In this document: piece after piece, positions 19,186-57,088 of the stretch | Layout of the letters: every line of letters begins with the position of its first letter | Position numbering within the stretch: the first letter of the stretch is position 1 | DNA from: Elusimicrobia bacterium GWB2_63_16 | GTDB lineage: Bacteria > Elusimicrobiota > Elusimicrobia > Elusimicrobiales > UBA9959 | Length of the DNA: 64,000 bases | Assembly: GCA_001799715.1 (NCBI GenBank) | Contig: MGTZ01000028.1 | Coordinates: 10,954 to 74,953, forward strand | Direction: 5' to 3' | The notes under the pieces: generated by a model | Database searches by the model: none | Told to the model about the DNA's origin: nothing | What the model saw: the letters and a program-made list of their open reading frames with translations, nothing else | Translations under genes and position numbers: made by a program

Positions 19186-19434
19186 ATGGCTGTTGAGAAC
19201 TTCGAAGAGAGAGTTAAGAAAATCATAACCGAGCAGCTCGCCGTCGACGCGGCCGAGGTCACCCCGCAGGCCCAGTTCGTACAGGACCTCGGCGCCGACT
19301 CGCTCGACACCGTCGAACTGGTCATGGCGCTCGAAGAGGAATTCGACATCGAGATCCCGGACGAGGACGCCGAGAAGATCAAGACCGTCGGCATGGCGAT
19401 CTCCTACATCAAGGAAAAGGCGAAGAAAGACTGA
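19186..19434 (+). CDS. acpP: Acyl carrier protein
   Basis: 82 aa with the [19 protein letters not shown] phosphopantetheine site. Confidence 0.95.
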
Positions 19435-19444
19435 GCCGCCTTTA

Positions 19445-43600: not shown

Positions 43601-43858
43601 TATCTCCACGTCATAGCGGCCCTTGGTCACCCTGACGTCGCAGCGGGTCTCGGAGAACAGCGGGCTGGTGATGCCGGTGGGAGTATCGTAGATATAGAAC
43701 TTCAGGTCCTGCGGCGTTTCCACCGGCAGGTTGGTGATCTTGCTGATCAGGTAGCCCTGGTAGTTTATCGTCGGGGTTATCACGGCGGCGGCTGGCGCCG
43801 CGAGCAGCAGCGCGCCCAGCGCGCCTGCGAGCAGATTTTTAACGTGAGTAGAATTCAT
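40637..43858 (-). CDS. Large secreted tail-fibre-like repeat protein with Cys-rich C-terminal knob
   Basis: 1073 aa with signal peptide and an N-terminal INYQGYL module. Repeated F(Y/F)GDGSGL..(L/V) and LKAGDTMTGQLTL(A/S)GSTLTV motifs (aa 295-326, 369-408, 508-540, 749-762). Duplicated ARLHV modules. Last ~70 aa contain 6 Cys. GGAGG SD. Confidence 0.8.
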   Translation of the reverse strand: MNSTHVKNLLAGALGALLLAAPAAAVITPTINYQGYLISKITNLPVETPQDLKFYIYDTPTGITSPLFSETRCDVRVTKGRYDVEIGSAVAGGIPASIFAERDGLWLEIQVDGDNDCAGAFEAMSPRVKLQASPYSFSSVYATTSSVATSMFLADTIGAHPTTANGAITISTNLFVLGGISVGSISPGQTLAVAGMVESKGSLPACADDLSCGFKFPDGSVQTRAAALTMWEVAGPHVYSINPGNVSIGQNNTNPQARLHISSAAGDTGDLLLVSTGTSQLFLVNGLGQVHGGSFYGDGTTLTGVLRKAGDTMTGQLTLSGSTLTVASAEGLLSPKIKFAGGIELSSAAAAQRGGIFISSHVYLMPGATFYGDGSGLINLISSDTSKVLKAGDTMTGQLTLAGSTLTVTGSAFSVGGSSLSVLGGNTAIGSASYLARLTVGGGIIATSSITAQGSMHAASVHAPSGIGNFYNVTATTGTIWGWDPGTTYSLDTASGVLVRAGVVNAPYFVGNGSLLTSVTGTDSTKLLKAGDTMTGNFIVSPASATLASFGAHKYALTVSSSATSNAYTLAVTTAGRVGVLVPAPAAPLDVAGEAMVSYANTVTGAAKLSIKSYNDYSYIHWTNSSLVASGGVNLGVLGYPGGLERDLIYRAVGSDPWNGGQEVFRVKADQYGNWLFGIGSSPSPADQPREKFHVMANLLVSSATANAMPLLYVSTTAGKVSIGTTAQTHLLTVNGGINAVSSVTAQGGFFGDGSGLTNLVTDSLPGLIQISTITARTGGLYDAVLFSTSVYVQNKLAVGGLFNPQSDLHLKGQLRLDQKAGEEVVLSLYPNLGGNSYIVWNEGATPQKGVLGMVSSERDLVYRGGATTLGNGVQAFRIKDTGPFIVGEVDKNFLPASRLHVATDLTVSVSGAGSTPALYVSTASRSLGVNTGAPQARLHVDGYSLFSASASVLGGGLAGTQSVLEVVGSTLVVRANGTVGIGVASPAERLDVAGKVKATGFAASRERVSAPCPANTICAAGCTAGKVLMGGGCTQTGTVNLLKSYPSSDTVWTCEFASNVDITAYAICSTVE

Positions 43859-43873
43859 AAGTCCTCCGCCGCC

Positions 43874-45490
43874 TTACCTGACCACGACCACGGTGCCGTT
43901 ATAGACGGTGCCGTCGGCCTCCAGCTGGTAGATGTAGACCCCGCCCGGCACCGCCTGGCCGCCGGCCTTGGCGTCCCAGACGAGGGAATTGGACACGGGA
44001 CCGCCCGTCATGCTGCCCACCAGGGCGCCGCGCAGGTCGTAGATCTTGCCTTTCACGCTCTTCTCCTGCGGGTTGTCGAAAATAAAGACCATCGTATCAT
44101 TTTTGCCGTCCCCGTTTGGAGTGATCAGGCGGTTGGTCAGGCCGGCTTTGTCCGCCGAGAAACCGCCGCTGCGCTCGGTGGTCCGCAGCTGGTAGCGCCC
44201 CAGCAGCCTGGTGTCCAGGCGCACGCTGCGCTCGTCCTCGTCGACTATGCCGTACATCTGCAGCCAGCGCGCGCCGTTGAAGTAGTACATGCTCAGCGCC
44301 TTGGCGTCCGCTCCGGCGGAGGGAACTATCGCGCCGCCGGCTTTGGCGTAATAGAGTTTCAGCGTGCCCTTGCTGGCCAGCTGGAAGAGCGGGTCAGCCT
44401 GCAGACCGCCGCGGTAGGCGGAGAACTCCACCGATTTGACCACGCGCCCGCTCAGGTCCTCGATATGCGTGGAGATGTCGAGAGTGTAGACGTCCATCGG
44501 ATCGGCCGAGGGGGAGAAGAAGCTGCCGGTGCCCTCCTGCGGCACCTCGAAGACGCTCTGGTTGTCGGGGGCCAGGAAGTAGAGGCCGCCCGACTCGCTG
44601 GAACGCACGTACGAAGGCAGCGAGACGCCGGCCTGGTTCACCGCGCGGGCGTGGTAGTAGTAGGGATCGGCGGTGGGAACGATGTCCGTCCAGTTCAGCG
44701 TGCTGGAGGAGGTTTCGGCGATCTGCACCCACTCCGCGTCGGCGGGAGCCGTGGCGCGGTAGACCTCGTATCTCTTTACCTCATAGGGGTACGACGGGCT
44801 GAAGCGGTTGTCGAAAGGGATGCGGTTCATGTACCCGGCCGGCGGGATCCAGGTCATGGTGACGGCGTTGCCGGTGCGCGCGAGCTGGAAGTTCATCGGG
44901 GCCAGCGGGGTCAGGGCCAGCGCCGCGGCGGCGTTGGAGATCTCCGAGCGCAGGTAATGGCTGTTGAGCGTCTCCATGGCGAAGTAATAGGTGGTGCCGG
45001 CCTGGAACCCCTCTACGATCCGGCTCTCGCGCGTGCCGGGCTCCAGCGGGACCCAGTCCTGGCCGTAGACCTGCGCCGCCGCGAAGCCCTCGTCGGTGGA
45101 GACCGGGGCGACGGAGCTGTAGCGCAGTATATAATAGCCGGCGGCCTCGGCGTTCCGGCTGGCGTCGGCGGAGGGGGCCGTCCAGGTGAGCCGGATGGAA
45201 TAACTGGAGACTATCACCGGCGTCAGGTCGAAGACCGGGGCGGGGAAAGGGTAATAAGCCAGCTTGCCGCTGCGGTGGATCAGACCGGAGGCCTCCTGCG
45301 TGGAGACGGCCAGGTCCTGCACGTTGCCGTTCATCTCGAAACTCGGCGAGACCATGTAGGAGGAGCCGTTGCCGGTGGCGCCGGTGATGTCTATGAAATT
45401 CGCGGAGGTGAGCCGGGAGGCGCGCGCCTGCCCGGCCGGCAGCAGGGCCGACAGGGCGAGCAGGGAAAAGAAACAGCGCCTGAAGTTCAC
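43874..45490 (-). CDS. Secreted protein with two FN3-like domains and a CHU_C / T9SS-type-B-like C-terminal domain
   Basis: C-terminus ITPNGDGKNDTMVF...KIYDLRGALV...WDAKAGGQAVPGGVYIYQLEADGTVYNGTVVVVR. FN3-like LTWTAPS / MTWIPPAG modules. I prefer the GTG at 45490, directly before the signal peptide FRRCFFSLLALSALLPAGQARA and 6 nt after a TATAAT. The track start is the ATG at 45562. Confidence 0.75.
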   Translation of the reverse strand: MNFRRCFFSLLALSALLPAGQARASRLTSANFIDITGATGNGSSYMVSPSFEMNGNVQDLAVSTQEASGLIHRSGKLAYYPFPAPVFDLTPVIVSSYSIRLTWTAPSADASRNAEAAGYYILRYSSVAPVSTDEGFAAAQVYGQDWVPLEPGTRESRIVEGFQAGTTYYFAMETLNSHYLRSEISNAAAALALTPLAPMNFQLARTGNAVTMTWIPPAGYMNRIPFDNRFSPSYPYEVKRYEVYRATAPADAEWVQIAETSSSTLNWTDIVPTADPYYYHARAVNQAGVSLPSYVRSSESGGLYFLAPDNQSVFEVPQEGTGSFFSPSADPMDVYTLDISTHIEDLSGRVVKSVEFSAYRGGLQADPLFQLASKGTLKLYYAKAGGAIVPSAGADAKALSMYYFNGARWLQMYGIVDEDERSVRLDTRLLGRYQLRTTERSGGFSADKAGLTNRLITPNGDGKNDTMVFIFDNPQEKSVKGKIYDLRGALVGSMTGGPVSNSLVWDAKAGGQAVPGGVYIYQLEADGTVYNGTVVVVR

Positions 45491-45496
45491 AATGTA

Positions 45497-45502
45497 ATTA
45501 TA
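45497..45502 (-). promoter_or_regulatory. TATAAT -10 box 6 nt upstream of the GTG at 45490
   Basis: Reverse complement of attata at 45497-45502, within the AT-rich divergent intergenic region. Confidence 0.4.
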
Positions 45503-45594
45503 TACCGGCCGTGCGACCAAAATATTACAAAGAGATTTCGGCTTACGCCGGGCAGAATCCATAAATATGAAACAAAACAGTCACAAATGAAAAG

Positions 45595-45600
45595 TAGAAT
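45595..45600 (+). promoter_or_regulatory. TAGAAT -10 box 8 nt upstream of the ATG at 45609
   Basis: tagaat at 45595-45600, then tagtctgt, then ATG. No SD. Confidence 0.4.
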
Positions 45601-45608
45601 TAGTCTGT

Positions 45609-46010
45609 ATGAAGCCCTGCAAAGCCGTTCTCAGCCTCCTCGCCGCGCTGGCGCTCGCCCCCGCGGCGGCGTTCTGCTCCGCGTCGGCGCTCGGCCGCTC
45701 CGTGGCGCTCAACCGCCTGGTGACGCCCAACAACGACAAGAAGAACGACACTTTTATTTTCCGCTGCTATAACCCGCGCGACGCGGCCGTGGACGCGAAG
45801 ATCTACGACCTCGCCGGCCGCGAGGTGGCCCAGATGCGCCTCAAGCAGCGCTCCAACGGCACGCCGCCCGTACAGGACAACAGCTCGGGAGAATTCTACG
45901 ATCTGGAGTGGGACCCGAACCGGGGGGAGAAGTACCCCGGCGGCGTCTACGTCTACCAGGTCCGGACGGAAGAGCAGGTGTATAAGGGTACTGTAGTCAT
46001 TATAAGGTAA
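45609..46010 (+). CDS. Stand-alone CHU_C / T9SS-type-B-like sorting-domain protein (signal peptide plus domain only)
   Basis: 133 aa. Signal peptide, then LVTPNNDKKNDTFIF...KIYDLAGREV...WDPNRGEKYPGGVYVYQVRTEEQVYKGTVVIIR, collinear with the C-terminus of the 43874 gene. Confidence 0.75.
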   Translation: MKPCKAVLSLLAALALAPAAAFCSASALGRSVALNRLVTPNNDKKNDTFIFRCYNPRDAAVDAKIYDLAGREVAQMRLKQRSNGTPPVQDNSSGEFYDLEWDPNRGEKYPGGVYVYQVRTEEQVYKGTVVIIR

Positions 46011-46017
46011 GCGACAT

Positions 46018-47988
46018 ATGAACCGCGCCACCGCCACGAAGACCGCTCTGACCGCAGCCCTGCTGCTGGCGCCGCTTTGCGTACGGGCGGCCTTCGAGGA
46101 CCTGGGCTTCGGGGCCAGGGGCCCCGGCATGGGCGACGCCGTCACCGGCGTGGCCGACGACGTTTCCTCGGTCTACTACAACCCCGCCGGCCTCGGCGGC
46201 CTGGAGCGCCCGAAGGCGCTGGCCTCCCATTCCCTTTTCCACGGGGGGCTCAGCGACGGCTCCAGTCTGGGCCTCAGCGTGGCCGCGCTGGCCATGCCCA
46301 TAGGCAACGGCCGCCACGGCACCATCGGCGCGGCCTGGCAGGATTTCTCGCTCTCCGGCGTCTATTACGAGAAGACCGGCACCGTGGCCTGGGGCTACCG
46401 CTTCGACCGCGGCAGCCGCTACGAGAAACTTTCGGTGGGCGCGTCGCTGAAATACCTGTCGCACGGCTTCTCGCGCCTCGACGAGGCTTACAACGCCGTG
46501 ATGGAAAACCTCTCCCAGACCGGCGCCACGGACCCGGTGCTGGCCGGCGCCAACTCCCGCGGCGCCCTGGACGCCGATCTGGGCGCGCTGTACCGCCTCA
46601 CCAACCGGTGGACGCTCGGCGCGGCCATACTCAACGCCATGCAGGCCAACGTGGCTTTCAGCGAGTCCGACAAGGACCCCGTGCCCATGAAGGCCCGGCT
46701 GGGCGCCTCGTTCAAGAGCCTCTGGCTGCTCCTGTCCGCCGACGCCAGGCTGCAGAAGGGCCCCGACGGCAGCCTGGACAAGCAGTTCGTGGTGGCGGCC
46801 GAGAAGGTGTTCCCCAGCCTCGACCGCGGCGAGTTCGGCGTGCGGGGCTCGCTCGGCGCCGGCGACAGGGAATTCAAGCAGGCCACGCTGGGTCTCTCCT
46901 ACAAGATACAGCGCATACAGTTCGACTACGGCTTCATGCTGCCCATCGGAACGGTCAAAGAGACCTCCGGCAACCACCGCATGGCCCTGTCCTACCATTT
47001 CGGCACGCCTACCCAGTCCGAGATCGCCGAGAGCGAGCTGCTGGACCAGTACAAGCGCCTGCGCGAGACGCAGAACTACAAGGGCGCCCGCGATACCGCC
47101 AGCCTCAACGACCCCCGCCTGGCCGAAGTGAAAGAGCAGGTGCTGCGCGAGAATTATTACGCGGCCAACAAGCTGCTGGTGGCCAAGGCGGGCGAGCTGC
47201 TGCCCGATTCCTCCGTGGTCAACCTCACGCGCCGGCTCTCGGCCGTCGCGGCCTACTACCCGTCGCTGGCCCCCGAGCCGGGCCGCGGCCGCCAGCGCTG
47301 GGAGGACCTGCTCGCCAGCGGCGTAAGGGATTTCGTGAACGGCGCCGACAACCGCGCCATGAAGAAGCTGGCCTACGCCCAGAGCCTCAACCAGCAGGAC
47401 GGCGGGCTGGCCAACTTCCTGGACAAGGCCGGCGAGATCTCCCGCATTACGCCGGACAAGGTGCCGGCCGATTTCAGCCGCGGCTGGCCCGAGTACAAGC
47501 TGGACCAGTCCGACGAGTTCTACGCCAAGAAGCGCTATTCCGAGGCGCTGCGCAAGCTCGAGGAACTGCTGGACATAGAGCCGGCCTACCTGATGGCCCT
47601 TAAGAAGAGCGGCTCCTGCAACTATATGCTGGGCGCCTACTCCCGCGCCGCCCGCGACTGGGAGAAGGCCTCGCGCGCCGAGCCGGACCCGGTGGAGAAG
47701 GCCAAGCTGGCCAAGATGACCGCGGAGGCCCGCAAGAAGCAGGGCACGGAATCTTCCTGGGAGCCCGAGACCGGCTCCTACCGCGACGAAGCGGCGGGCG
47801 AGCCCGTGCTAACCGGCGCGGCGGCCAACGCCAGGGAGATCGAGAAGCTCTACCAGGCCGGGGCCGACGCCTACGCGAAGGGCGAATACGGCAAAGCGGC
47901 CGACGCCTTCCGCAAGATCCTGACGCTGGACCCGCAGAACACGCAGGCCAAGAAGGCCCTGGAGCGCATCATCAGGCTCTCCAGGTAA
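46018..47988 (+). CDS. Outer-membrane beta-barrel (PorV/PorQ/FadL-like) fused to a C-terminal TPR/helical domain
   Basis: Signal peptide. GARGPGMGDAVTGVADDVSSVYYNPAGLGG motif near the N-terminus, as in the PorV/PorQ/TraF/FadL-type barrels I recall. Alternating-strand pattern to about aa 330 (ends HRMALSYHF). Then TPR-like repeats to aa 656. Confidence 0.65.
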   Translation: MNRATATKTALTAALLLAPLCVRAAFEDLGFGARGPGMGDAVTGVADDVSSVYYNPAGLGGLERPKALASHSLFHGGLSDGSSLGLSVAALAMPIGNGRHGTIGAAWQDFSLSGVYYEKTGTVAWGYRFDRGSRYEKLSVGASLKYLSHGFSRLDEAYNAVMENLSQTGATDPVLAGANSRGALDADLGALYRLTNRWTLGAAILNAMQANVAFSESDKDPVPMKARLGASFKSLWLLLSADARLQKGPDGSLDKQFVVAAEKVFPSLDRGEFGVRGSLGAGDREFKQATLGLSYKIQRIQFDYGFMLPIGTVKETSGNHRMALSYHFGTPTQSEIAESELLDQYKRLRETQNYKGARDTASLNDPRLAEVKEQVLRENYYAANKLLVAKAGELLPDSSVVNLTRRLSAVAAYYPSLAPEPGRGRQRWEDLLASGVRDFVNGADNRAMKKLAYAQSLNQQDGGLANFLDKAGEISRITPDKVPADFSRGWPEYKLDQSDEFYAKKRYSEALRKLEELLDIEPAYLMALKKSGSCNYMLGAYSRAARDWEKASRAEPDPVEKAKLAKMTAEARKKQGTESSWEPETGSYRDEAAGEPVLTGAAANAREIEKLYQAGADAYAKGEYGKAADAFRKILTLDPQNTQAKKALERIIRLSR

Positions 47989-48015
47989 GGGGGGACGGAC
48001 CGCAGGCGCAGCCGT

Positions 48016-49347
48016 ATGAAATTATTCCACAAATTCAGCGCGGCCCTTATGGCCGCCGCTCTGGCGGCGGCCCTGCTGCTTTCCGGCATCTTCTTCAGCT
48101 TCCAGAACCGCACCGTGCGCCAGGCGCAGGAGGACCGCCTGCAGGCCCTGGCGCAGTCCGCGGCGGCCATGCTCGGCGAGGCAGAGCTGGCCGGCGACCC
48201 GCTGATGGCGGTGGATTACCTGTCCGGCTTGTGCTCGTCGCGGGCGGAGATAGCCGCCTGCCGCCTGGACATCGGCCGCGGCCTGCGGCCGGTGAAGACC
48301 CGCGGCAAGGCCCCGGCCCCGAAGGGGGACGTTCCCGTGCCGCGCGAGCTGCGCGGCGGCAAATATTCCGCGCAGCTGCTGTTCTCGTCGGCGGCGCTGG
48401 AGCGCGAGCGGCGCGAGGCCCTGGCCGGCGTCTGGCATGACCTGGCCGCCGCCTTCCTGGGCGCCATGGCCGCGGCGGCCCTGCTGGGCGTGCTGGTGGC
48501 CCGCCGGCTGACGCGGCGCCTGCGGCGGCTGGCCGAGGAGGCCGCGCTGGTGGGCGAGGGGCGCTTCGGCGCCAAGACCGACGCCTCCGGCTCCGATGAG
48601 GTGGCCGAGCTGGCCGGCGCTCTGAACGCGATGAGCGACCGCCTGCTCGAGCTGGAGACGATGAAGAAGAACTTCACCGCCTCCGTCACGCACGAGCTGC
48701 GCTCGCCGCTGGGGGTAATAGAGACCTACGCCGCGCTGCTCCTCAAGGAGAAGGAAAAATTCAGACCCGAGGACCTGGAGGTCTTCACGCGCATCAAGGA
48801 GAACGCCGGACGGCTGGCCAACTTCGTGACCGCCATGCTGGACCTGGCCAGGATCGAGCGGGGCCGGATGGACCTGCGCCCGGCCGCCGAGGACCCGCTG
48901 GCGCTCGCGCGAGATGCGGCCGACTTCCTCCGGCCTAAGGCGGAGGAGAAGGGGATAACCCTGGCGGTGGAAGGCGGCCCGCCCGGCGGCACCGCGCGGC
49001 TGGACCGCGAACTGGTCACGCATGTCCTCACCAATCTGCTCTCCAACGCCCTCAAGTTCACCCCGGCGGGCGGGAGCGTCACGCTGCGCGCCGCGCTTGC
49101 CGGCGGCAGGTGCCGGTTCGAAGTAGCCGACACCGGGCCCGGCCTGCGCGAAGGGGAAGCGCAAAAGCTGTTCGCCCCTTTCACGCAGGGCTCGGCGGCG
49201 CCCGGCCACGGCGGTACCGGCCTGGGCCTGGCCCTGGTGAAAGCCATCGCCGAGCTGCACGGCGGCAAGGCGGGCTGCGGCCCGGCCCCCGGCGGCGGCG
49301 CGGCGTTCTGGGTAGACCTGCCGGACGGCGGGGAAACCCCGAAATAA
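48016..49347 (+). CDS. Sensor histidine kinase (2 TM, HAMP, HisKA, HATPase_c)
   Basis: H-box FTASVTHELRSPLGVIE, N-box LTNLLSNALKF, and G-boxes DTGPGL / GGTGLGLA. Confidence 0.9.
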   Translation: MKLFHKFSAALMAAALAAALLLSGIFFSFQNRTVRQAQEDRLQALAQSAAAMLGEAELAGDPLMAVDYLSGLCSSRAEIAACRLDIGRGLRPVKTRGKAPAPKGDVPVPRELRGGKYSAQLLFSSAALERERREALAGVWHDLAAAFLGAMAAAALLGVLVARRLTRRLRRLAEEAALVGEGRFGAKTDASGSDEVAELAGALNAMSDRLLELETMKKNFTASVTHELRSPLGVIETYAALLLKEKEKFRPEDLEVFTRIKENAGRLANFVTAMLDLARIERGRMDLRPAAEDPLALARDAADFLRPKAEEKGITLAVEGGPPGGTARLDRELVTHVLTNLLSNALKFTPAGGSVTLRAALAGGRCRFEVADTGPGLREGEAQKLFAPFTQGSAAPGHGGTGLGLALVKAIAELHGGKAGCGPAPGGGAAFWVDLPDGGETPK

Positions 49348-49366
49348 CTTTGTAACCTGCTTTATA

Positions 49367-49372
49367 TACAAT
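49367..49372 (+). promoter_or_regulatory. TACAAT -10-like hexamer 6 nt upstream of the GTG at 49379
   Basis: AT-rich 30-nt gap after the kinase stop: tttatatacaatatagct GTG att ATG. Confidence 0.3.
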
Positions 49373-49378
49373 ATAGCT

Positions 49379-50830
49379 GTGATTATGACCGCACCCCTAC
49401 GCCTTTTAGCCGTCCTGTCCCTCTGCCTGACCCTTAACGCGGGCGCGCAGGAGGCCGACCCGGCCCTTTCGCCCACCGCCCAGGGCTCCGAGATCTCGGC
49501 CCGCATGCAGGAGGACGTGTCGAAGCTGCTCGAGGAACTGCTCGGCCGCGGCCGGGCCCGCGCTTTCGTCACGGTGGAGGGGGAGATAGTGCTCAAGAGC
49601 AAGAGCGAGTCCGGCTCCCCGCCCGAAGAGAACCTGACCCTGCCCGGCTACTCGGCCGTCAACATCCTCGAGAAGACCGGCGAGTACCTCAAGCAGCAGC
49701 GCGCCGAGAGCCAGCGCACCAGCGAGTTCCGCGTCAAGCGGCTCGCGGTTTCACTCGTTTTCGACCGCGCCGTCCCCGACGCCCGCGTGAACGCCATCAA
49801 GCTGATGATCGCCGAAGTGCTGCGCGTCAGCGAGCAGCGCGGCGACACCATCATCACCGCCAAGGCCGAAATGCTGCCCTGGTGGAAGAGCGCCCTCGAG
49901 GCGCCCGAGATCCGCCCGGTGCTGGTGGCCTCCGCCTTCGGCGCGCTGGCGCTCGGCGTGTTGCTGATCTTCGGCTACATCCTGGCCTCCAAGCTGCTCA
50001 GCGGCTTCGTGGACTACGCCCGCATCAACGGCCCCGCCGCGGCCGCCGCCGGCCCCGCGGGCGGCGCCCTGGGCGGCCCCGGAGAAAGCGAGGGCGGCGA
50101 GGTGGGCGAGTTCGGCGAGATCATAGACGTGGAGTCCAAGGCCGCCTCGGGCGGCGCCATGCTGACGGCCGGCTCCGCCTTCGATTTCATCGAAAAGCTG
50201 CCTCCGTCGGACTCCGCCGAGCTTATCGCGGACCTGCCCGACGAGGACGCCGCCATCATCATAGCCAACCTGGCCGACCGCAGGCCCCATATTTCCTCCA
50301 AGGTGCTGCTGGCGCTGCCGCCCGCCAAGCGCCAGTCCGTCTCCGCCTTCCTGCTGGGCCTCAAGCAGGCCGAGCCCGAGCGCGTCTACGAGATCGAGAA
50401 CGACCTGCGCCTGAAGCTCGAGAAAAGCCTCAAGGGCGCCGAGAAGCTGGGCCGCCTGCTGTCGCTGGTGGACGAGGGCGCCCGCAGCGAGATCATGGAC
50501 AATCTCAACCGCGCCGACCCGAAGGCCTCCGAGGAACTGCGCAGCAGGATGGTGACGTTCGACGACCTGTGCCGCCTCGAAGAGAAGAACCTCAAGCCGC
50601 TCGTGGTGTCGCTGCCGTACGCCGACTGGGCCACCGCGCTGGCCGGCGCCGGCGAGGTGGCCACGGGCAACGTGACCCGGCTGCTGCCCGAGGACGTGCG
50701 CCTGGTGGTCAAGGACCTGATGATGACCCGCCCCGAGGACGAGCGGGTGATCGGCGCCAGGGCCAAGATAATTTCCGCCGCGATGGACCTCAACGCGAAG
50801 GGCCGCATAGTCCTGAAGGGGGGCGCGTGA
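49379..50830 (+). CDS. FliF-like (ring-building motifs plus TM) / FliG-like fusion protein
   Basis: Signal peptide. Periplasmic part has LEELLGRGRARAFVTVEGEI and RLAVSLVFDR...IAEVLRVSEQRGDTIIT (FliF/YscJ RBM-like). TM at aa ~179-207 and a Gly/Ala linker. aa ~265-483 is collinear with FliG N/M/C (ADPKASEELRSRMVTFDDLCRLEEKNLKPLV...ATALAGAG...KGRIVL). Start is the GTG at 49379 or the ATG at 49385. Confidence 0.7.
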   Translation: MIMTAPLRLLAVLSLCLTLNAGAQEADPALSPTAQGSEISARMQEDVSKLLEELLGRGRARAFVTVEGEIVLKSKSESGSPPEENLTLPGYSAVNILEKTGEYLKQQRAESQRTSEFRVKRLAVSLVFDRAVPDARVNAIKLMIAEVLRVSEQRGDTIITAKAEMLPWWKSALEAPEIRPVLVASAFGALALGVLLIFGYILASKLLSGFVDYARINGPAAAAAGPAGGALGGPGESEGGEVGEFGEIIDVESKAASGGAMLTAGSAFDFIEKLPPSDSAELIADLPDEDAAIIIANLADRRPHISSKVLLALPPAKRQSVSAFLLGLKQAEPERVYEIENDLRLKLEKSLKGAEKLGRLLSLVDEGARSEIMDNLNRADPKASEELRSRMVTFDDLCRLEEKNLKPLVVSLPYADWATALAGAGEVATGNVTRLLPEDVRLVVKDLMMTRPEDERVIGARAKIISAAMDLNAKGRIVLKGGA

Positions 50831-52812
50831 GCCGCCCCGCCGACGCCTTCGACTCCGACCTGGACTACCTGTGGCGCGCCGTGGGCGAGGCCCAGGACGC
50901 CTCGTCCCGCTCCGAGGCAGAACGCGCCGAGGCCCGCAAAAGCCTCGCGCTCTATGCCTCCAGGGCCGCGCTGCTTGAGAAACAACTGGCCGAGAGCCAC
51001 GCCCGCGAGAGGCATTTGAAGGCCGAAGCCGAGAAGCTGCGCTCCGCCGCCGGGCTCGGCTCGGAACGGCTGGCCGCCGCCGCCGCGGCCGCGCGCGAAG
51101 CCGAAGAGCTGCGCAGCGCCCTGCTGCGCAAGGAGGGTGAGCTCGCCGCCGCCGCGCCCGAACTCGAGGACCTGCGCGCCAGATCGAAAAATCTGCGGGA
51201 GGCCCTGGCCGCCCGCGACGAGGCTATCGCCGCGTTCAGGGGCAAGCTCACGGCCATAATGGAACTGCCCGAGATAGACCGGTTGCTGCGCGCCGACGAG
51301 GCCGCCACCGGCAAGCCCCGCCCGCTTTACGAGGAACTGCTGGAACGCCTGGAAGCCTCCAGGCGCGCCGCCGCCGGCTCGGCCGCCGCGCTGGCCGCCG
51401 CCGCCGAAGGGGAGGCCGCAGCCCGCCTGACCCTGGAAGCCGCCGAAAAGGAACTGGCCGAACAGCGCGACGCGCTGCGGCAGAAGAATTTGGATCTGGA
51501 AGGGCTGAAGAAGGCTGTCAGCGAGGCCGCCTATCAGGCGAGGATCTCCGGGGAGGAGAAGCAGGCGCTGGAAAGCCGCGCCGCCGCCCTCAAGGCCGCC
51601 ATAGCAGAGAAAGAAGCCGCCCTGGCCGCGGCCGCCGACGAGTCCGCCTCGCTGCGCGCCCGCCTGGACGCCTCCCGGGAGGAGGCCGAGCGCCTGCGCC
51701 AGTCAGCCGACGAGCATTCGGTAAAGGCGCAGGAGCAGCGCAGCAATTTTTCGGGAGCGGTGAGCCAGGTCTTCGACCTGCAGAACCGCGCCGCCGCGCT
51801 CAAAACGGCGCTGGGCGAGGCGCAGGAGCGCAGCGCGGCCGCCGCCTCCATGCTCAAGGCCCGCGAGGCCGACCTGGAAAAGGTCAACGGCCTGCTGCGC
51901 GACGCCAAGGGCGCCCTGACGCAGGAGAAGGAAGTTTCCCGCCGGGAAATGGTGAAGATAAAGGCGCTGGAGGCCGAGATAGACGCCCTCAAGACCAAGC
52001 TGGGCGCCGCCGCCGATTATTCGGCGCGGCTGCTCAAGGCCGTGGAGGAGCGCGACCTGGCCCTGGGCGCCGGCAAGGCCGCGCAGGCGCAGGACGGCAA
52101 GAAGCTGGCCGACCTCGAGATCGAGAACGAGGACCTGCGCCGAAAGAACATAAAATTTACCGGCCTCCTCAAGCGCGAACAGGCCGATTTCTCGGCCAGG
52201 ATGCTGGTCTCGCTGGAGCGCTCCGCCAGGGAGCTCAAGAATTTCAACCTGCGCATCCCCGCCGCCGAGCGCAAGGCGCTCGAGCCCGCGCTGAAGACGC
52301 TTTTCGCCTCCGTGAACCTGCTCAAGGGCTGGCAGGAGTACCTGGACCCCGAGACCCCCGACATGGAAGACACCGACCTCGCCTCCCTGGTTTCCGTCGA
52401 GACCGGCAAGTGGGAACGCGCCTTCAAGCAGCGCAAGATCTCCATCACCGCCGCCATCCTCAACCCGCGGCTGCGCGCGCGGCTGGCGCCCGAGCGCGTG
52501 AAGATGCTGTTCTACAACCTCATCAAGAACGCCTACGAGCGCCTGCAGCAGGGCGGCAGCCTGCGCGTGACCATGAAGAGTTCCGACGACGCGCGCCTGG
52601 CCGTCTTCACCTTCGAGGACACCGGCCCCGGCTTCGCCCGCGAGGCGCTGGACAAGCTTTTCGCCCCGTTCAACACCACCGACAAGGGCAAGGCCGGCAT
52701 AGGCCTGGCCGTGGCGCGGCGCATAGCCGAGAAGCACGGCGGCACGCTGGAAGTCACCAACAAGAAAGAACGCGGGGCCATAGTGGAAGTGCGCCTGCCC
52801 CTGGGCGTATAA
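50827..52812 (+). CDS. Cytoplasmic long coiled-coil protein with C-terminal HATPase_c domain (kinase-like, H-box apparently degenerate)
   Basis: Track ORF 49882-52812 trimmed to the GTG at 50827 (GTGA overlap with the upstream stop). About 450 aa of Ala/Glu/Leu/Arg heptad-like sequence. C-terminus has N-box FYNLIKNAYERL and G-boxes EDTGPGF / GKAGIGLAVA. The H-box position reads VSLERSARELKN. Confidence 0.65.
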   Translation: MSRPADAFDSDLDYLWRAVGEAQDASSRSEAERAEARKSLALYASRAALLEKQLAESHARERHLKAEAEKLRSAAGLGSERLAAAAAAAREAEELRSALLRKEGELAAAAPELEDLRARSKNLREALAARDEAIAAFRGKLTAIMELPEIDRLLRADEAATGKPRPLYEELLERLEASRRAAAGSAAALAAAAEGEAAARLTLEAAEKELAEQRDALRQKNLDLEGLKKAVSEAAYQARISGEEKQALESRAAALKAAIAEKEAALAAAADESASLRARLDASREEAERLRQSADEHSVKAQEQRSNFSGAVSQVFDLQNRAAALKTALGEAQERSAAAASMLKAREADLEKVNGLLRDAKGALTQEKEVSRREMVKIKALEAEIDALKTKLGAAADYSARLLKAVEERDLALGAGKAAQAQDGKKLADLEIENEDLRRKNIKFTGLLKREQADFSARMLVSLERSARELKNFNLRIPAAERKALEPALKTLFASVNLLKGWQEYLDPETPDMEDTDLASLVSVETGKWERAFKQRKISITAAILNPRLRARLAPERVKMLFYNLIKNAYERLQQGGSLRVTMKSSDDARLAVFTFEDTGPGFAREALDKLFAPFNTTDKGKAGIGLAVARRIAEKHGGTLEVTNKKERGAIVEVRLPLGV

Positions 52813-52839
52813 AGAAAAAGGGCGGGAAAGCTCCCGCCC
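52811..52839. terminator. Bidirectional terminator between convergent operons
   Basis: Hairpin gggcggga-aagc-tcccgccc (52820-52839) preceded by aaagaaaaa. This gives a U-run on the minus strand. Confidence 0.6.
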
Positions 52840-52860
52840 GTGCCGCCGGTACAGCCAGCC

Positions 52861-53541
52861 TTACAGCCTGAAAATGTAGCCCAGCCTGAAGATAGTCCCT
52901 ATCTTGCTCCCGAAGCGCCCCAGCTTGCGGCGCAGGGCCTCTATGCGCTTGTCCACGGCGCGGGGGCCGGCTTCGGCCGCGTCCTTCCACACCTGTTCCA
53001 GCAGGACGTAGCGCGAGACCACGCGCCCCTGGTTGCGGAGGAAATAGAGAAGGATGTCGAATTCCAGGGCCGTGAGCCTCACCTTTTTGCCGCCAACGCT
53101 GGCAGCGCGGGCCTCCGGCGAGATGAGCAGGTCGCCGAACTCGTACTCGGCGGGTTTCTCCGGCCGCGGCCGGCCGGCGGGGCCGCGCCCCAGCAGGTTC
53201 AGCAGCCGCGCCCGGAACAGCAGCGGGTCGGGGGGGAAGGCGAAATACTCGTCGGCGCCGCTATCGAAAGAGGCGGCGGCCGCGGCCGGGGAATAGGGGG
53301 CGGCGCCGGTCAGCACCAGCAGCAGGCCGGCGGTCCCGGGGGACCCGCGCAGCGCGGCCACCAGGTCTCCGCCGCCCATGTCCGGCAGCGCGGCGTCTAT
53401 CACGGCCAGCCCGGCGGCCGGGGGGGCTTTCAGAAAAGCGGCGGCGGTGGGGTAGAACTTCAGCGCGAAGCCCGCCAGCGCGGCGCGGTAAAAGGCCCGG
53501 GCGGCGGGATCGGAGGTAAGACAGAAGGCGGCAGGCTTCAT
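52861..53541 (-). CDS. OmpR-type winged-helix regulator with atypical receiver domain
   Basis: C-terminal LTALEFDILLYFLRNQGRVVSRYVLLEQVW...VDKRIEALRRKL trans_reg_C pattern. The receiver keeps the D in VIDAALPDM, lacks the N-terminal DD pair, and has YFAFP where Y-x-x-KP is expected. Confidence 0.8.
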   Translation of the reverse strand: MKPAAFCLTSDPAARAFYRAALAGFALKFYPTAAAFLKAPPAAGLAVIDAALPDMGGGDLVAALRGSPGTAGLLLVLTGAAPYSPAAAAASFDSGADEYFAFPPDPLLFRARLLNLLGRGPAGRPRPEKPAEYEFGDLLISPEARAASVGGKKVRLTALEFDILLYFLRNQGRVVSRYVLLEQVWKDAAEAGPRAVDKRIEALRRKLGRFGSKIGTIFRLGYIFRL

Positions 53542-53915
53542 GCGGGCAGCACGGCGGCTTTAATGCGGCGCAGGAGCTCGTCGGGGTCGAACGGCTTGAG
53601 CACGTAGCCGGCCGCGCCGAGCGCGAGGCCCTGCGAGACCATGTCCAGCTCGGAACGCACGGTAAAGAAAATGATGGGGGTTTTGGCCAGGGCCGGGACC
53701 TTGCGGATACGGCGGGCGGCCTCGAACCCGCTGACGTCGGGCAGACCCACGTCGAGCAGGATCAGGTCGGGGAGTTCCCTGGCGGCCAGCTCCACCCCCG
53801 GCAGGGCGGCGGCGGCGGTGAGCACGGCGCAGCCGGCCTTGGCCGCTATGCGCGAGGCGATGCGCAGGTAATCGGGTTCGTCGTCCACCACCAGGATCAC
53901 GGGGCGGGGGGTCAT
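53538..53915 (-). CDS. Single-domain response regulator (CheY-like)
   Basis: ILVVDDEPD, LILLDVGLPDVSG, FFTV, and YVLKPF. Confidence 0.9.
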   Translation of the reverse strand: MTPRPVILVVDDEPDYLRIASRIAAKAGCAVLTAAAALPGVELAARELPDLILLDVGLPDVSGFEAARRIRKVPALAKTPIIFFTVRSELDMVSQGLALGAAGYVLKPFDPDELLRRIKAAVLPA

Positions 53916-54298
53916 TTCTTCCTGGTCAGGTCCTCTACTTTCTTCTGCAGGTAGGAGAGTTCCACGGTCTTGCTCATGAACTCGCGGCAGTTGGACTCCT
54001 GCCGGAACAGCTCGCTCATGTTCTTGTCGAAGAACGTGCCGGTGATGACCAGCACCGGGATGGAGCGGGTCTCGTCGTCGGCCTGCAGGCCGCGGATGAC
54101 CTCTATGCCGCCGATGTCGGGCATCATCACGTCGCAGAGGATGATGTCCGGGCGTATGGCCTTGGCCTTCAGCAGGCCCTCGCGCCCGTTCTCTGCGATC
54201 TCCACCGTGAAACCGAGGTCGGTGAAATAATCGCAGACCATAGTCCGGAATTCCACGTTGTCGTCAACGATAAGCATCAGTCCCATATTCTGTCCCAT
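53912..54298 (-). CDS. Single-domain response regulator (CheY-like)
   Basis: LIVDDN, IILCDVMMPDIGG, and VLVITG. Confidence 0.9.
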   Translation of the reverse strand: MGQNMGLMLIVDDNVEFRTMVCDYFTDLGFTVEIAENGREGLLKAKAIRPDIILCDVMMPDIGGIEVIRGLQADDETRSIPVLVITGTFFDKNMSELFRQESNCREFMSKTVELSYLQKKVEDLTRKK

Positions 54299-54330
54299 GC
54301 GGTCTAGTATATTTCAAATGCGCCCGGTTT

Positions 54331-56451
54331 TCAAGAGGGCGAGGGGATGGGCGGGGGCGGGGCCGCCAGCGACTTGGCCACGGTGAAGATGAACTTGCTG
54401 CCTTTGCCCACCTCGGACTCCACCCAGATGTCGCCCTTGTGCAGCTGCACCGTCATCTGGCACATGGCCAGGCCCAGGCCGAAGCCCTGGCTCTTGTGCT
54501 CCTCCATCTGGCCGTATTTCTCGAAGATCTCCTTGCGCTTGGCCTCCGGAATGCCGGGGCCGGTGTCCTGCACGGCGAAGAACACCTGCTTATCGTCCTC
54601 CCAGGCGGAAAGCGTGATGGTGCCGCCGCCGGGGGTGAACTTGAGCGAGTTGCCCATCAGGTTGGTGATGACGCGCTCGAGCAGGGTCGGGTCGGCGGTG
54701 AAACTGATCTTCGCCGGCGGGGGGACCACCACGAGCTTGATGTTCTTGGGCCCGGCGACCGGCTCGTGGTTGTCCTTGATGCGCGCGATCACGGTCTCGG
54801 CGTCCACCGTGTCGAGCTGCAGCGTCATCGTGCCGCGCTCGAGCTTGGTGACGTTGAGGATGTCGTCGATCATGCCGCGCAGGCGGCGCGACGAATAGAG
54901 CATGCTCTGGAGATACTTGTCGGTGGCGGGGGAGGGGCCGATCTTCTTCATCAGCAGCTCCGTATAGCCCTGCAGGGTCGACAGCGGGGCGCGCATGTCG
55001 TGCGTGATCATGTGGAAGAAATCTTCCTTGGCCTTTTCGATCTCCTTCTCGCTCGTGATATCGCGGATGATGATGACGCGGCCCGGGCGCTTGAGCGTGG
55101 CCAGCAGGAACTGGTTGGAGATGACGCGGAAGCTCTTGGTCACCGTGGAAGTCTCGTTGACGAGCGGGGCGTCCAACTCGGTCTTAAGGTACTTCTCCTT
55201 GTGCGCCAGCATCTCGGTCAGGGCGTTGAAGAAAGCTTCGTTCTTGACGGAGCGGGGGACGGCCACCTCGGGGGAGATCTTGGGGATGCCGAGGAGCTTG
55301 AGCGCGGTGTTGTTGCAGTAGATCAGCGAGCCGCGGTCGTCTATCAGCAGCACGCCGTCGGAGATGGTGTCGATGAGCGCCTGGGCCTTGCCCTTCTCCT
55401 CCACGATCTGGTTGAGCTGGAAGGCGCGGTAGGCCTGCAGCTCCAGCATCAGTCGGTTGAGCACGCCCACGAGCGACTTGATCTCGGGCCAGCCCTCGGC
55501 GGGGATCACATTGTCCAGGTGCTGGGTGCGCAGAAAGCCTTTGACGCCGCCCACCATGTTGTTGATGGGGCGGATGATGCGGTTGGAGACCAGGAACACC
55601 ACGACCATGGCGATGGCGAAAATGACGACGGCCAGCGCCGCGAACACGATGATGGATTTGCGCTGCTTGCCGTAGAGTTCCTCTTCGGACTGCACCGAGA
55701 CGGCGGCCCAGTCCAGGTCCTCGATGGCGGCGTAGGCGCCGGCGAACTCCTCGCCGGAGAAAAGGAACTGGGACAGCGTGCCGGTGCGGCCGCCGCTGCG
55801 GAAGACCTTGCGCAGGTCCTCCGGCTTGAAGTCCAGGCCTTTCATGTCCTGGCAGGGGAGGGGCTTGCCCTGGCGGTCGGAGATGAAGACGCGGCCGCTG
55901 GCGCCGGTCTTCTGGGAATTGATCTTGCCCAGCAGTTTGTCCATCGAGAAATGGAACACGACCACGCGGCCGTCCACCAGCGGGTAGGCCAGCGGGAAGT
56001 AGGTCTGCGCGCGCAGGCAGATGGGGTCCCCGGTGGAGACCACGCCGCTGTCGGCGGCCTTGGCCACCAGCGCGGCCTGGAAGGAGGCGAGGGACTTCTT
56101 TTCGCGCACGGTCTCGCTCTGCAGGAAGAACAGCTCCTTCCCGTCGGCGGCGACCAGCGCCAGCGACATGATATCGGAATTGATGCGCGCCGCCTGCTGT
56201 ATCACCTGCGTCTCGTCCACCTTCCTGCCGCGCAGGGGGTTCTCGAACTCGTAGAGAAAGGCGAGGTTGCGGTTGGTGTTCTTGAGCCACTCGTCCACGT
56301 TGGCGGCCGACAGCCGGGACAGGCCCTTGTGCAGTTCGAAATAGCTGGCCACCGAGGAGTTGTACTGATAGACGTTCCAGCCGACGGCCAGCACGAGCGG
56401 GAGCACCGCTATGCCCAGCAGGATCAGCAGGAACCTCGTGGTCAGTTTCAT
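54331..56451 (-). CDS. Sensor histidine kinase (periplasmic Cache-like domain, HAMP, PAS, HisKA, HATPase_c)
   Basis: Two TM helices flank a ~240-aa periplasmic domain. H-box FFHMITHDMRAPLSTLQGY. NLMGNSLKF, QDTGPGI, and GFGLGLA motifs. Confidence 0.9.
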   Translation of the reverse strand: MKLTTRFLLILLGIAVLPLVLAVGWNVYQYNSSVASYFELHKGLSRLSAANVDEWLKNTNRNLAFLYEFENPLRGRKVDETQVIQQAARINSDIMSLALVAADGKELFFLQSETVREKKSLASFQAALVAKAADSGVVSTGDPICLRAQTYFPLAYPLVDGRVVVFHFSMDKLLGKINSQKTGASGRVFISDRQGKPLPCQDMKGLDFKPEDLRKVFRSGGRTGTLSQFLFSGEEFAGAYAAIEDLDWAAVSVQSEEELYGKQRKSIIVFAALAVVIFAIAMVVVFLVSNRIIRPINNMVGGVKGFLRTQHLDNVIPAEGWPEIKSLVGVLNRLMLELQAYRAFQLNQIVEEKGKAQALIDTISDGVLLIDDRGSLIYCNNTALKLLGIPKISPEVAVPRSVKNEAFFNALTEMLAHKEKYLKTELDAPLVNETSTVTKSFRVISNQFLLATLKRPGRVIIIRDITSEKEIEKAKEDFFHMITHDMRAPLSTLQGYTELLMKKIGPSPATDKYLQSMLYSSRRLRGMIDDILNVTKLERGTMTLQLDTVDAETVIARIKDNHEPVAGPKNIKLVVVPPPAKISFTADPTLLERVITNLMGNSLKFTPGGGTITLSAWEDDKQVFFAVQDTGPGIPEAKRKEIFEKYGQMEEHKSQGFGLGLAMCQMTVQLHKGDIWVESEVGKGSKFIFTVAKSLAAPPPPIPSPS

Positions 56452-56457
56452 ACGTAC

Positions 56458-57084: not shown

Positions 57085-57088
57085 AGTT

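Follow-up and report, generated by a model that had tools for sequence, protein, structure and literature searches.

A FliF–FliG fusion protein encoded with MotAB in Elusimicrobiota, a candidate rotor ring of a non-flagellar envelope machine

Introduction

A natural FliF–FliG fusion has been described in the Chlamydiaceae, where a protein of ~330 aa keeps the second ring-building motif (RBM2) of FliF, lacks RBM3 and carries a FliG_M-like region only (PMC4768692). This protein is the closest precedent for the one reported here, a FliF–FliG fusion encoded at positions 49379–50830 on the forward strand of a 64,000-nucleotide stretch of the genome of Elusimicrobia bacterium GWB2_63_16 (assembly GCA_001799715.1, contig MGTZ01000028.1, positions 10,954 to 74,953; hereafter the window, whose own numbering is used throughout). 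Both proteins are natural single chains in which the periplasmic region is shortened, two segments are hydrophobic and a FliG-like domain lies in the cytoplasm, and both occur in bacteria not known to be flagellated. The chlamydial periplasmic region, however, consists of RBM2 and one unassigned RBM with no SpoIIIAG-like RBM3, and the protein has been discussed in relation to the injectisome, with no MotAB partner described, whereas the Elusimicrobiota protein keeps RBM3 with its β-collar, FliG_M and FliG_C and is linked to MotAB. The natural fusion announced in an original prediction made from the window is real, but the chlamydial protein had already provided an example of such a fusion. On balance, we consider it probable that the Elusimicrobiota protein forms the rotor ring of a non-flagellar envelope machine driven by MotAB.

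Engineered FliF–FliG fusions form rings in Salmonella and Vibrio, and rotation is supported in Salmonella (PMC4768692; PMC10941966; PDB 8z4d/8z4g); these differ from the present protein in being artificial, in joining full-length FliF to full-length or nearly full-length FliG, and in belonging to a complete flagellum. The separate FliF and FliG of flagella, which work with MotAB or PomAB, share with the fusion RBM3 and the β-collar, the second transmembrane (TM) helix of FliF (TM2), FliG_M and FliG_C, as well as the RGD motif that precedes TM2, the Gly of the hinge and a MFXF-like motif. In addition, the MotA of the cluster is of the flagellar type, its MotB has the plug, the Asp and the OmpA domain, and the 1 : 1 relation of FliF and FliG is covalent here. 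The flagellar FliF ring has approximately 33–34 subunits, and RBM1 and RBM2 of FliF hold the export gate. Compared with the flagellar pair, the fusion is a single chain devoid of TM1, RBM1, RBM2, the FliF C-terminal peptide, FliG_N and the EHPQR motif, and its cluster lacks genes for FliM/FliN, the rod, hook, filament and export apparatus, the neighbours being outer-membrane, surface and two-component genes instead.

The core of type IX secretion systems (T9SS) and gliding machinery (PorLM/GldLM, PorKN, PorP–PorE–type B C-terminal sorting domain (CTD) and PorXY) resembles the system in several respects: an ion-driven motor of the 5 : 2-type family, a PorP/PorV-like barrel beside a protein with a CTD-like domain, modules of the TPR and the OmpA-like, peptidoglycan-binding kinds, a two-component system of its own, and large surface adhesin-like proteins. 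In the T9SS, a PorP-like barrel serves as the anchor of type B CTD proteins and interacts with PorE, which has TPR and OmpA domains, near the PorKN ring and the PorLM motor (PMC9143113). Here, MotAB and a FliF/FliG ring would occupy the places of GldLM and PorKN, and the TPR domain is fused to the barrel; the likeness is a functional analogy by gene content, not membership.

Elusimicrobiota have been reported to lack flagellar machinery, and their isolates are non-motile (PMC11257099). Homologues of motAB, flbD and fliG without flagellar structural genes were noted in free-living Elusimicrobiota in a passing remark of a preprint (10.1101/2022.07.08.499144). Our literature search found no description of the fusion, of its FliF part or of the cluster, and the papers on giant genes of Omnitrophota do not mention FliG or MotAB.

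Architecture and topology of the fusion protein

The open reading frame (ORF) of the fusion gene extends over 483 aa from its first GTG and has a third-position GC content of 0.93, like the other coding genes of the window (~65% GC). Since the identical database proteins are 481 aa long, the true start is probably the ATG at 49385, yielding a 481-aa product. The next gene (50827–52812) begins with a GTG that overlaps the stop codon of the fusion as GTGA. The order of domains is a signal peptide, the FliF RBM3/β-collar region, one TM helix, a Gly/Ala linker, FliG_M and FliG_C. The signal peptide that had been proposed (aa 1–23; 49379–49447) was read from the sequence: the N-terminus MIMTAPLRLLAVLSLCLTLNAGA, followed by QE, has an Arg in the n-region, a 13-residue hydrophobic core and an A-x-A motif, with cleavage expected between AGA and QE. 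It looks cleavable; A-x-A is found at this position in most family members, and residues 5–19 are helical in the AlphaFold2 model. The periplasmic FliF-like domain (aa ~24–178) occupies 49448–49912 and the TM helix, the equivalent of FliF TM2, 49913–49999. Hydropathy (peak at 181–199) and the model (helix 179–217) agree with the helix originally placed at aa ~179–207, and the alignment to Salmonella FliF ends at residue 475. The predicted Gly/Ala linker is indeed a disordered, Gly/Ala/Glu-rich cytoplasmic segment (aa ~208–264; 50000–50170; pLDDT <50 over 217–264), variable in length and sequence across the family, and it stands in for the FliF C-terminal peptide and FliG_N. The FliG middle-domain-like region (50171–50434) and the FliG C-terminal domain (50435–50827) complete the protein.

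The AlphaFold2 model, built with 62 homologues, has a mean pLDDT of 72.7 and shows an N-terminal helix, an α/β periplasmic domain, the long TM helix, the disordered segment and an all-helical C-terminal half. The periplasmic elements are helices at 32–55, 94–110 and 134–147 and strands at 60–75, 112–128 and 157–162, with a low-confidence loop at 76–89.

The topology, which follows from the signal peptide and the one TM helix, is supported independently by kinase-fused relatives, in which the order is TM, HisKA (88–153), HATPase_c (200–313), TM, FliF_C (375–505; full profile, above the cutoff), TM, FliG_M and FliG_C. The kinase in these proteins must be cytoplasmic, which places the FliF part in the periplasm and the FliG part in the cytoplasm. 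The sequence order thus predicts that the FliF part of the fusion lies outside and the FliG part inside the cytoplasm, and not that the FliG-like part is periplasmic. In these relatives (loci L004 and L083), a complete histidine kinase (HisKA and HATPase_c) is attached to the N-terminus of the fusion through the extra TM helix, and every ring subunit would carry a kinase.

The FliF-like periplasmic part

In the fusion itself, the match to YscJ_FliF_C is weak (aa 99–158; E = 9.5e-4; 20.1 bits vs a Pfam cutoff of 23.8). The same family was matched in 38 of 40 diverse family members (best E = 3.7e-10), and relatives exceed the cutoff over the whole profile. A family profile of this region, made from 17 diverse members, matched solved FliF structures at 2.7e-10 and residues 240–475 of Salmonella FliF, comprising RBM3, the collar and TM2, at 1.2e-9. 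When the model was compared with the PDB by Foldseek, FliF RBM3/β-collar structures (7cg7, 6sd1, 8z4g and others) were retrieved with E-values of 4e-4 to 3e-3 over ~155 columns. The region is accordingly assigned to RBM3/β-collar plus TM2 (the PF08345 region) on family, profile and structural evidence. SpoIIIAG also has a split RBM with a β-strand insert and forms a large collared ring, but both it and EscJ/PrgK are much weaker matches than FliF (0.09–0.19 by Foldseek and 0.19 by profile; for SpoIIIAG, 0.1–0.2 against 1e-9 to 1e-10 for FliF), and SpoIIIAG lacks both a FliG domain and a MotAB partner and occurs in a different context.

The secondary structure of the periplasmic part runs α-β-β ... 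β-β-α-β, and the domain carries a nearly invariant LPG(Y) motif together with the RGD motif, the Asp of which is invariant. Over the 40 diverse members, only two columns are invariant, namely this Asp of the FliF-type RGD and Gly353 of the FliG hinge. The homology to FliF/YscJ that had been proposed from the window was upheld, but the two ring-building motifs described there each form one half of a single split RBM3 that carries a short β-collar insert. The loss of the N-terminal half of FliF proposed at the same time agrees with the Pfam scan: PF01514 (RBM1/RBM2, the SctJ-homology region) was not matched in the fusion, only ~155 periplasmic residues follow the signal peptide, and FliF TM1, RBM1 and RBM2 are lacking.

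The FliG part and its motifs

FliG_C (PF01706) matches the fusion at aa 375–479 along positions 2–108 of the 108-position profile (E = 6.8e-14; 52.5 bits vs a cutoff of 23.3) and was found in all 40 diverse members. FliG_M (PF14841) matches at 3.9e-5 with 24.2 bits, just under its cutoff of 25; it was found in 39 of the 40 members (best 1.6e-20), and the region is covered by the structural alignment. The sequence of the fusion aligns with Thermotoga maritima FliG-MC (1lkv) at 1.3e-12, and Foldseek searches of the PDB returned structures of the FliG middle and C-terminal domains (8wiw, 1lkv, 3usy and others) with E-values of 8e-9 to 1e-6 over ~216–224 columns. In the alignment to TIGR00207 (fliG), aa 264–482 correspond to positions 108–331 of 338, i.e. 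to the M and C domains only, and the score of 44.9 bits is far under the equivalog cutoff of 226.7. Of the N, M and C domains originally read over ~220 residues, C and, just short of the Pfam cutoff, M were recovered; N was not, because the TIGR00207 alignment starts at position 108 and Pfam gave no PF14842 match in the fusion. Weak FliG_N matches occurred in 6 of the 40 members, and these were taken as ARM-repeat cross-matches and rejected because they overlie the M domain in both of the two members whose coordinates were checked. The C-terminal half was also considered as an MgtE_N domain only, a reading that was rejected since MgtE_N scores 3.2e-5 against 6.8e-14 for FliG_C.

Hallmark motifs of FliG are partly retained. 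The EHPQR motif of FliG_M, which binds FliM, is degenerate (E289-D290-A-A ... F at the Arg position), and to judge from the sequence the FliM-binding site is lost in the fusion. One Gly of the hinge, Gly353, is present in 40 of 40 diverse members, and the MFXF motif is kept as M-V-T-F. The torque helix (aa 437–449; nt 50687–50725) reads PEDVRLVVKDLMM, i.e. P-E-D-V-R-L-V-V-K-D-L-M-M. Only part of its charges had been expected to be retained, and in fact one of the five classic torque charges of Escherichia coli FliG (K264, R281, D288, D289 and R297) is kept, D288 as D446. D439, R441, K445 and D446 are conserved in at least 90% of 62 close Elusimicrobiota members and vary in distant ones; the helix of the more distant members is more canonical, e.g. 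MSEGAAALLKEEMG.

MotA and MotB

MotA (57089–57862, reverse strand) is a stator A subunit of the flagellar type, with four TM helices and a large cytoplasmic domain. It aligns end to end with PomA/MotA structures (1e-37 to 1e-36) and matches the flagellar stator models NF006583 (1.7e-46), NF006527 and PomA/MotC (~1e-46), compared with ~1e-3 for TolQ/ExbB. MotB (56458–57084, reverse strand) has a plug, a TM helix in which the conserved Asp lies within YGDMMS, and a peptidoglycan-binding domain of the OmpA type, as identified by Pfam (MotB_plug and OmpA) and NCBIfam (MotD/MotB). The prolines of the MotA channel and the plug and channel Asp of MotB are all kept. A Zorya-like defence system (ZorAB) was considered and rejected, as ZorA was not matched and MotA is of the flagellar type; PADLOC gave no match for MotA or the fusion and only generic MotB/ZorB similarity.

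Conservation of the fusion gene and its cluster

In total, 117 close homologues were found, all from metagenome-assembled genomes (MAGs) of Elusimicrobia, and these are full length down to 45% identity. A scan by close alignment with one genome per species, which recovers the Elusimicrobiota group and unrelated canonical FliG (Desulfobulbus and others) but not distant fusions, identified a full-length orthologue in ~45 Elusimicrobiota/Elusimicrobiales species genomes, the closest being 97 and 96% identical. Forty columns are invariant among the close orthologues. The ratio of nonsynonymous to synonymous substitutions (dN/dS) against the two closest orthologues (loci L005 and L006) is 0.07 and 0.11, and the fusion gene is under strong purifying selection. 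By tblastn, every contig of sufficient length among ~30 Elusimicrobiota loci, L031 excepted, encodes all 13 proteins of the cluster described below; MotB is the most conserved protein of the 13, together with one of the CheY-like regulators. No other flagellar gene was found within 10 kb of the fusion in these ~30 loci.

The wider family and its genomic contexts

When 1.84 billion representatives were searched with a profile, 4425 matches were obtained, canonical FliG included. Among the 150 best cluster representatives, 117 have an RGD or KGD, then a TM helix and then a tail of at least 230 aa, at 20–35% identity, and the family with the same layout reaches 20% identity. Where members carry names, these are Elusimicrobiota and Margulisiibacteriota, apart from one 'Thermoprotei archaeon' MAG (P0273, in the cluster of P0198, on a 4.9-kb contig), which is most likely a binning error and not an archaeal FliF–FliG. 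A clade of fusions with a TPR tail also exists (P0206).

Ten contexts outside the close orthologue group, at ~20–32% identity, were sampled. MotAB lies within 10 kb of the fusion in eight of these and always in the close orthologue group; in L004, L083, L085, L086, L087 and L089 (20–28% identity), MotA and MotB are located directly or one gene downstream. Homologous fusions with MotAB neighbourhoods are thus present in public genomes. L003 contains an Elusimicrobiota-type cluster with MotAB, and L084 is also of this type. The kinase-fused form is found in L004 (10001–12529, P0268), where a 2885-aa protein, a TPR protein, the fusion, an unknown gene, MotA and MotB follow one another, and in L083 (10001–12511, P0187), which has the same layout and a 2773-aa protein. 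The order is a 16,931-aa protein, a UPF0164–TPR barrel, the fusion, MotA and MotB in L085; a CHU_C protein, a TPR protein, the fusion, MotA and two MotB in L087; and OmpR, a TPR protein, the fusion, MotA, MotB and an FlgD_ig protein in L089. In L088, a TPR protein precedes a fusion with a TPR tail, and FlbD–MotA–MotB are 6 kb away. L082 has PorV-like barrels, a CTD-bearing protease, a TPR protein, the fusion and a Roadblock/LC7 protein. The core that recurs therefore joins the fusion and MotAB to a TPR or barrel–TPR protein, and large or CTD-bearing surface proteins are encoded close by. In almost every non-flagellar context, the gene directly upstream of the fusion is the TPR or barrel–TPR gene. 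The fusion–MotAB module seems to have giant surface proteins as regular companions.

The tenth context, L086 (3096–14538; a Candidatus Margulisiibacteriota MAG, GCA_041650635.1), is a flagellar one: a fusion of 480 aa (P0191) heads an operon that continues with motA, motB, fliK, flgE, fliM, fliN, fliP, fliQ, fliR, flhB and flhA. This operon shows that the architecture of the fusion derives from, and can coexist with, the flagellar motor; some flagella may use a truncated, fused MS/C-ring protein or carry the fusion as a paralogue.

Several further features of these contexts were observed. The gene for the 16,931-aa predicted protein (L085, 1–8090) ends just upstream of the barrel–TPR gene, and the giant genes of L004 and L083 are in the same place. 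A Roadblock/LC7 (MglB-like) gene (L082, 15798–16145) and a PilZ gene (L085, 18684–19481) are near the fusion; both families are tied elsewhere to the control of motility machines. In L088, an FlbD-family gene (19288–19488) precedes motA–motB with no flagellar structural genes, matching the remark on orphan flbD in the preprint cited above (10.1101/2022.07.08.499144).

The 13-gene cluster and the rest of the window

The cluster spans 40637–57862 of the window, between a riboflavin operon and genes for acyl-CoA dehydrogenase and electron transfer flavoprotein (ETF). The system is larger than the first reading of the window had suggested, and includes a barrel with TPR, CTD proteins, a fibre protein and a two-component set. 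The fibre-like secreted protein (40637–43858, reverse strand; 1073 aa) contains repeated K-A-G-D-T-M-T-G and a Cys-rich C-terminus of ~70 aa; it belongs to no curated family, having only a weak match to the Chlorovirus glycoprotein repeat in Pfam, and is conserved in all orthologous clusters. Its repeats, K-A-G-D-T-M-T-G-(Q/N)-L, recall those of phage tail fibres or chlorovirus glycoproteins. It is followed by a surface protein with fn3 and a type-B-like CTD (CHU_C; 43874–45562, reverse strand), identified by Pfam and NCBIfam and kept in all long Elusimicrobiota loci, and by a small secreted protein of 133 aa (45609–46010, forward strand) with little beyond a T9SS-type CTD (CHU_C, 1.2e-7; also Por_Secre_tail and type B CTD). 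CHU_C scores 31–32 bits against a Pfam cutoff of 27, and the CTD matches are overall weak, near or below the curated cutoffs.

The small CTD gene ends 7 nt upstream of the gene for a PorP/PorV-like outer-membrane barrel (46018–47988, forward strand), in which the barrel (aa ~26–330) is followed by a C-terminal TPR domain that is presumably periplasmic. It matches PorV_fam at 2e-14 (below the cutoff of that model), T9SS_PorP_fam at 5e-4 and the Pfam TPR families, and its orthologues match PorP_SprF, UPF0164 or PorV. The barrel ends in ...MALSYHF, resembling an outer-membrane β-signal, and ~320 aa of TPR come after it. The arrangement over 45609–47988, a CTD gene and a barrel gene with a kinase gene next, is the same as that of type B CTD/porP-like pairs in Bacteroidota.

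A HAMP histidine kinase identified by Pfam (48016–49347, forward strand) is encoded directly upstream of the fusion. Downstream, the overlapping gene at 50827–52812 (forward strand) encodes a coiled-coil protein (~500 aa of coiled coil, rich in Ala, Glu, Arg and Leu) with a C-terminal HATPase_c and no detectable HisKA, which can be regarded as a pseudo-kinase because FSARMLVSLERS stands at the position of the phospho-acceptor His; its orthologues keep their position, and the ATPase domain is often missing in distant clusters. The remaining genes are on the reverse strand. An OmpR/PhoB-type regulator (52861–53541) has a degenerate receiver with neither the acidic pair of the N-terminus nor the conserved Lys, and was identified through Trans_reg_C as its only Pfam match and PhoB-like NCBIfam models. 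Two single-domain CheY-like response regulators follow, one at 53538–53915 (Response_reg, 1.1e-26; DD, D, T and K present) and one at 53912–54298 (Response_reg, 1.9e-18; 67–97% identity across loci). A conserved dCache–PAS histidine kinase (54331–56451; Pfam) is encoded in the operon of MotAB.

The site had been described as lying outside a flagellar locus, and this agrees with the Pfam scan of the ~46 predicted genes of the window, which found no rod, hook, export or switch (FliM/FliN) gene and nothing flagellar besides MotAB. Most of the remaining genes (~30) have housekeeping functions, including acetate kinase, Lon, ClpP, trigger factor, PlsX, RNase III and complex I. One gene close to EtfB and acyl-CoA dehydrogenase (59814–61187, forward strand) encodes an ETF alpha subunit with an N-terminal 2x[4Fe-4S] ferredoxin domain and has the look of a bifurcating-type Etf.

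A proposed mechanism and its alternatives

The pairing of the fusion with MotAB is supported by more than proximity, namely by synteny, by adjacency in distant genomes and by the flagellar type of MotA. We propose that the RBM3 part would assemble, as in FliF, into a ring of many subunits on the periplasmic side of the inner membrane. With both parts in one chain, the covalent link would take the place of the contact between the FliF tail and FliG_N, so that a ring of FliG-MC would hang below the membrane and the whole would constitute a combined MS-ring/C-ring rotor. MotAB, anchored to peptidoglycan through MotB, would draw on ion flow to exert force on the charged, conserved helix of FliG_C and thereby turn the ring. 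Since FliM and FliN are absent and the motif for FliM binding has been lost, we propose that the kinases of the cluster and its two CheY-like regulators exert control by direct action on the ring or the stators. More speculatively, the periplasmic collar may couple to the TPR domain of the PorP/PorV-like outer-membrane protein, which may hold the CTD-bearing and fibre proteins at the cell surface, and the motor may move, deploy or secrete these surface proteins as a functional analogue, made from parts of the flagellar motor, of the type IX/gliding apparatus driven by GldLM/PorLM. The fullest form of the proposal is a first non-flagellar machine with a FliG-type rotor, in which a MotAB-turned ring moves, deploys or secretes surface proteins via the barrel–TPR protein under the direct control of CheY-like regulators in the absence of FliM/FliN, widespread in free-living Elusimicrobiota and related uncultured lineages; this we put forward tentatively, as a possibility falling somewhat short of an even chance.

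A number of observations weigh against a rotor. Four of the torque charges are changed (K264 to A/Q, R281 to D (D439), D289 to L/M and R297 to D/E), and in MotA of 33 orthologues R90 and E98 (R88 and E96 of PomA) are replaced by Q/H and T/S/Q, with the adjacent K/R and the downstream Asp kept. The lineage signature of MotA is A-Q/H-K/R-Q/E-G-G-I-M-A-L-T/S/Q-N/S-x-D, compared with A-R-K-G-G-F-L-A-L-E-E-M-E in PomA, and includes a one-residue insertion. With the charges of both FliG and MotA changed, the canonical electrostatic interface is not preserved, and a remodelled rotor–stator interface has to be assumed in this lineage; the altered charges on the two sides fit such an interface or a non-torque role alike. 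In the window, MotAB is encoded 6 kb from the fusion on the opposite strand; at L031, the sole exception to the conserved clusters, it was not found in range, and in L082 and L084 the 10 kb around the fusion do not contain it. The scan of the cluster genes revealed neither PorK/L/M/N and Sov/SprA nor an axle or shaft component. The many kinases and the kinase-fused relatives suit signalling as readily as a motor. All family data come from MAGs, and the genome was viewed through the 64-kb window. Ring formation, contact with MotA, rotation and output are steps that we infer; of the MS-ring/C-ring hybrid first proposed as a partner of MotAB, the fusion and its synteny with MotAB have held, while the partnership and the rotation belong to these steps.

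The main rival is a static signalling scaffold, in which the fusion would gather kinases and regulators and MotAB would serve as a sensor of the envelope or ion flow, or as an anchor, so that contact or the state of the envelope is sensed and surface-protein genes are regulated. It would account for the two-component nature of 6 of the 13 cluster genes, for the kinase fused to the FliF–FliG protein in some lineages and for the constant presence of the OmpR-type regulator, and it is at ease with the changed torque charges of FliG and MotA; in addition, FliG and MgtE_N folds (the latter matched here) act as regulatory domains elsewhere. Against it, the fusion retains the FliG_C fold and the hinge Gly as well as the MFXF-like motif and a charged helix that is conserved. 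The plug and channel Asp of MotB and the channel prolines of MotA are kept, features that point to a working ion-driven stator, and MotAB adjoins the fusion even in the minimal clusters L085 and L087, which have no kinase gene within 10 kb. We therefore regard a scaffold as unlikely, although it is to be taken seriously. A secretion conduit appears less likely still. The RBM3/collar ring would then be a channel of the SpoIIIAG or injectisome kind that exports or assembles the CTD, fibre and giant proteins, energised or gated by MotAB and FliG. The fold class is indeed common to SpoIIIAG and EscJ/PrgK, and the very large proteins of 2773, 2885 and 16,931 aa adjoin the fusion in distant clusters, but the likeness to FliF is far above that to SpoIIIAG, and genes for an export gate, ATPase or translocon were absent from all clusters examined. 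The fibre protein and the small CTD protein moreover begin with typical signal peptides and would therefore cross the inner membrane independently.

The fusion might also be an ordinary flagellar component, a divergent MS-ring/FliG paralogue whose fellow flagellar genes lie elsewhere in the genome, as the Margulisiibacteriota relative of L086 may be, where P0191 heads an operon with motAB, fliK, flgE, fliMN, fliPQR and flhBA. A few Elusimicrobiota genomes are reported to carry full flagellar gene sets (10.1101/2022.07.08.499144), a further point against a non-flagellar rotor given that 64 kb of the present genome are in view. This explanation is nevertheless very improbable: beyond MotAB, no flagellar gene occurs in the window or within 10 kb in the ~30 Elusimicrobiota loci, RBM1, RBM2 and the FliM-binding motif are missing, the partners in the cluster belong to the outer membrane and the cell surface, and the phylum reportedly has no flagellar machinery (PMC11257099), its free-living members having motAB and fliG without structural genes. 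The same absence of flagella, together with the several changed hallmark residues of FliG and MotA, could be taken to mean that the gene has no present function and is decaying, a relic of a lost flagellum. The dN/dS of 0.07–0.11, the intact ORF in ~45 species down to 45% identity with its 40 invariant columns, the strict synteny of the 13 genes and a family that keeps its layout to 20% identity effectively refute this, and we give it almost no credence.

Implications

To our knowledge, all uses of a FliG rotor described so far are flagellar, and the known non-flagellar relatives of MotAB (ExbBD, TolQR, GldLM, AglRQS and ZorAB) all act through quite different partners. The system surrounding the fusion matches no described machine and would represent a new class if the fusion is indeed the rotor of a motor. 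In a phylum for which flagella are reported to be absent, a conserved module of MotAB and FliF/FliG would, if true, amount to a minimal one-protein rotor without a switch complex or an export apparatus. For the evolution of the flagellar motor, it raises the question of whether a ring with its stator can function and be favoured by selection when the type III secretion core is absent, and the fusion in the flagellar operon of Margulisiibacteriota raises the possibility that some flagella run on a truncated, fused MS/C-ring protein. The compact rotor–stator complex is also a target for structural work. In free-living Elusimicrobiota, including magnetotactic members without flagella, the module may explain movement or the handling of surface proteins.

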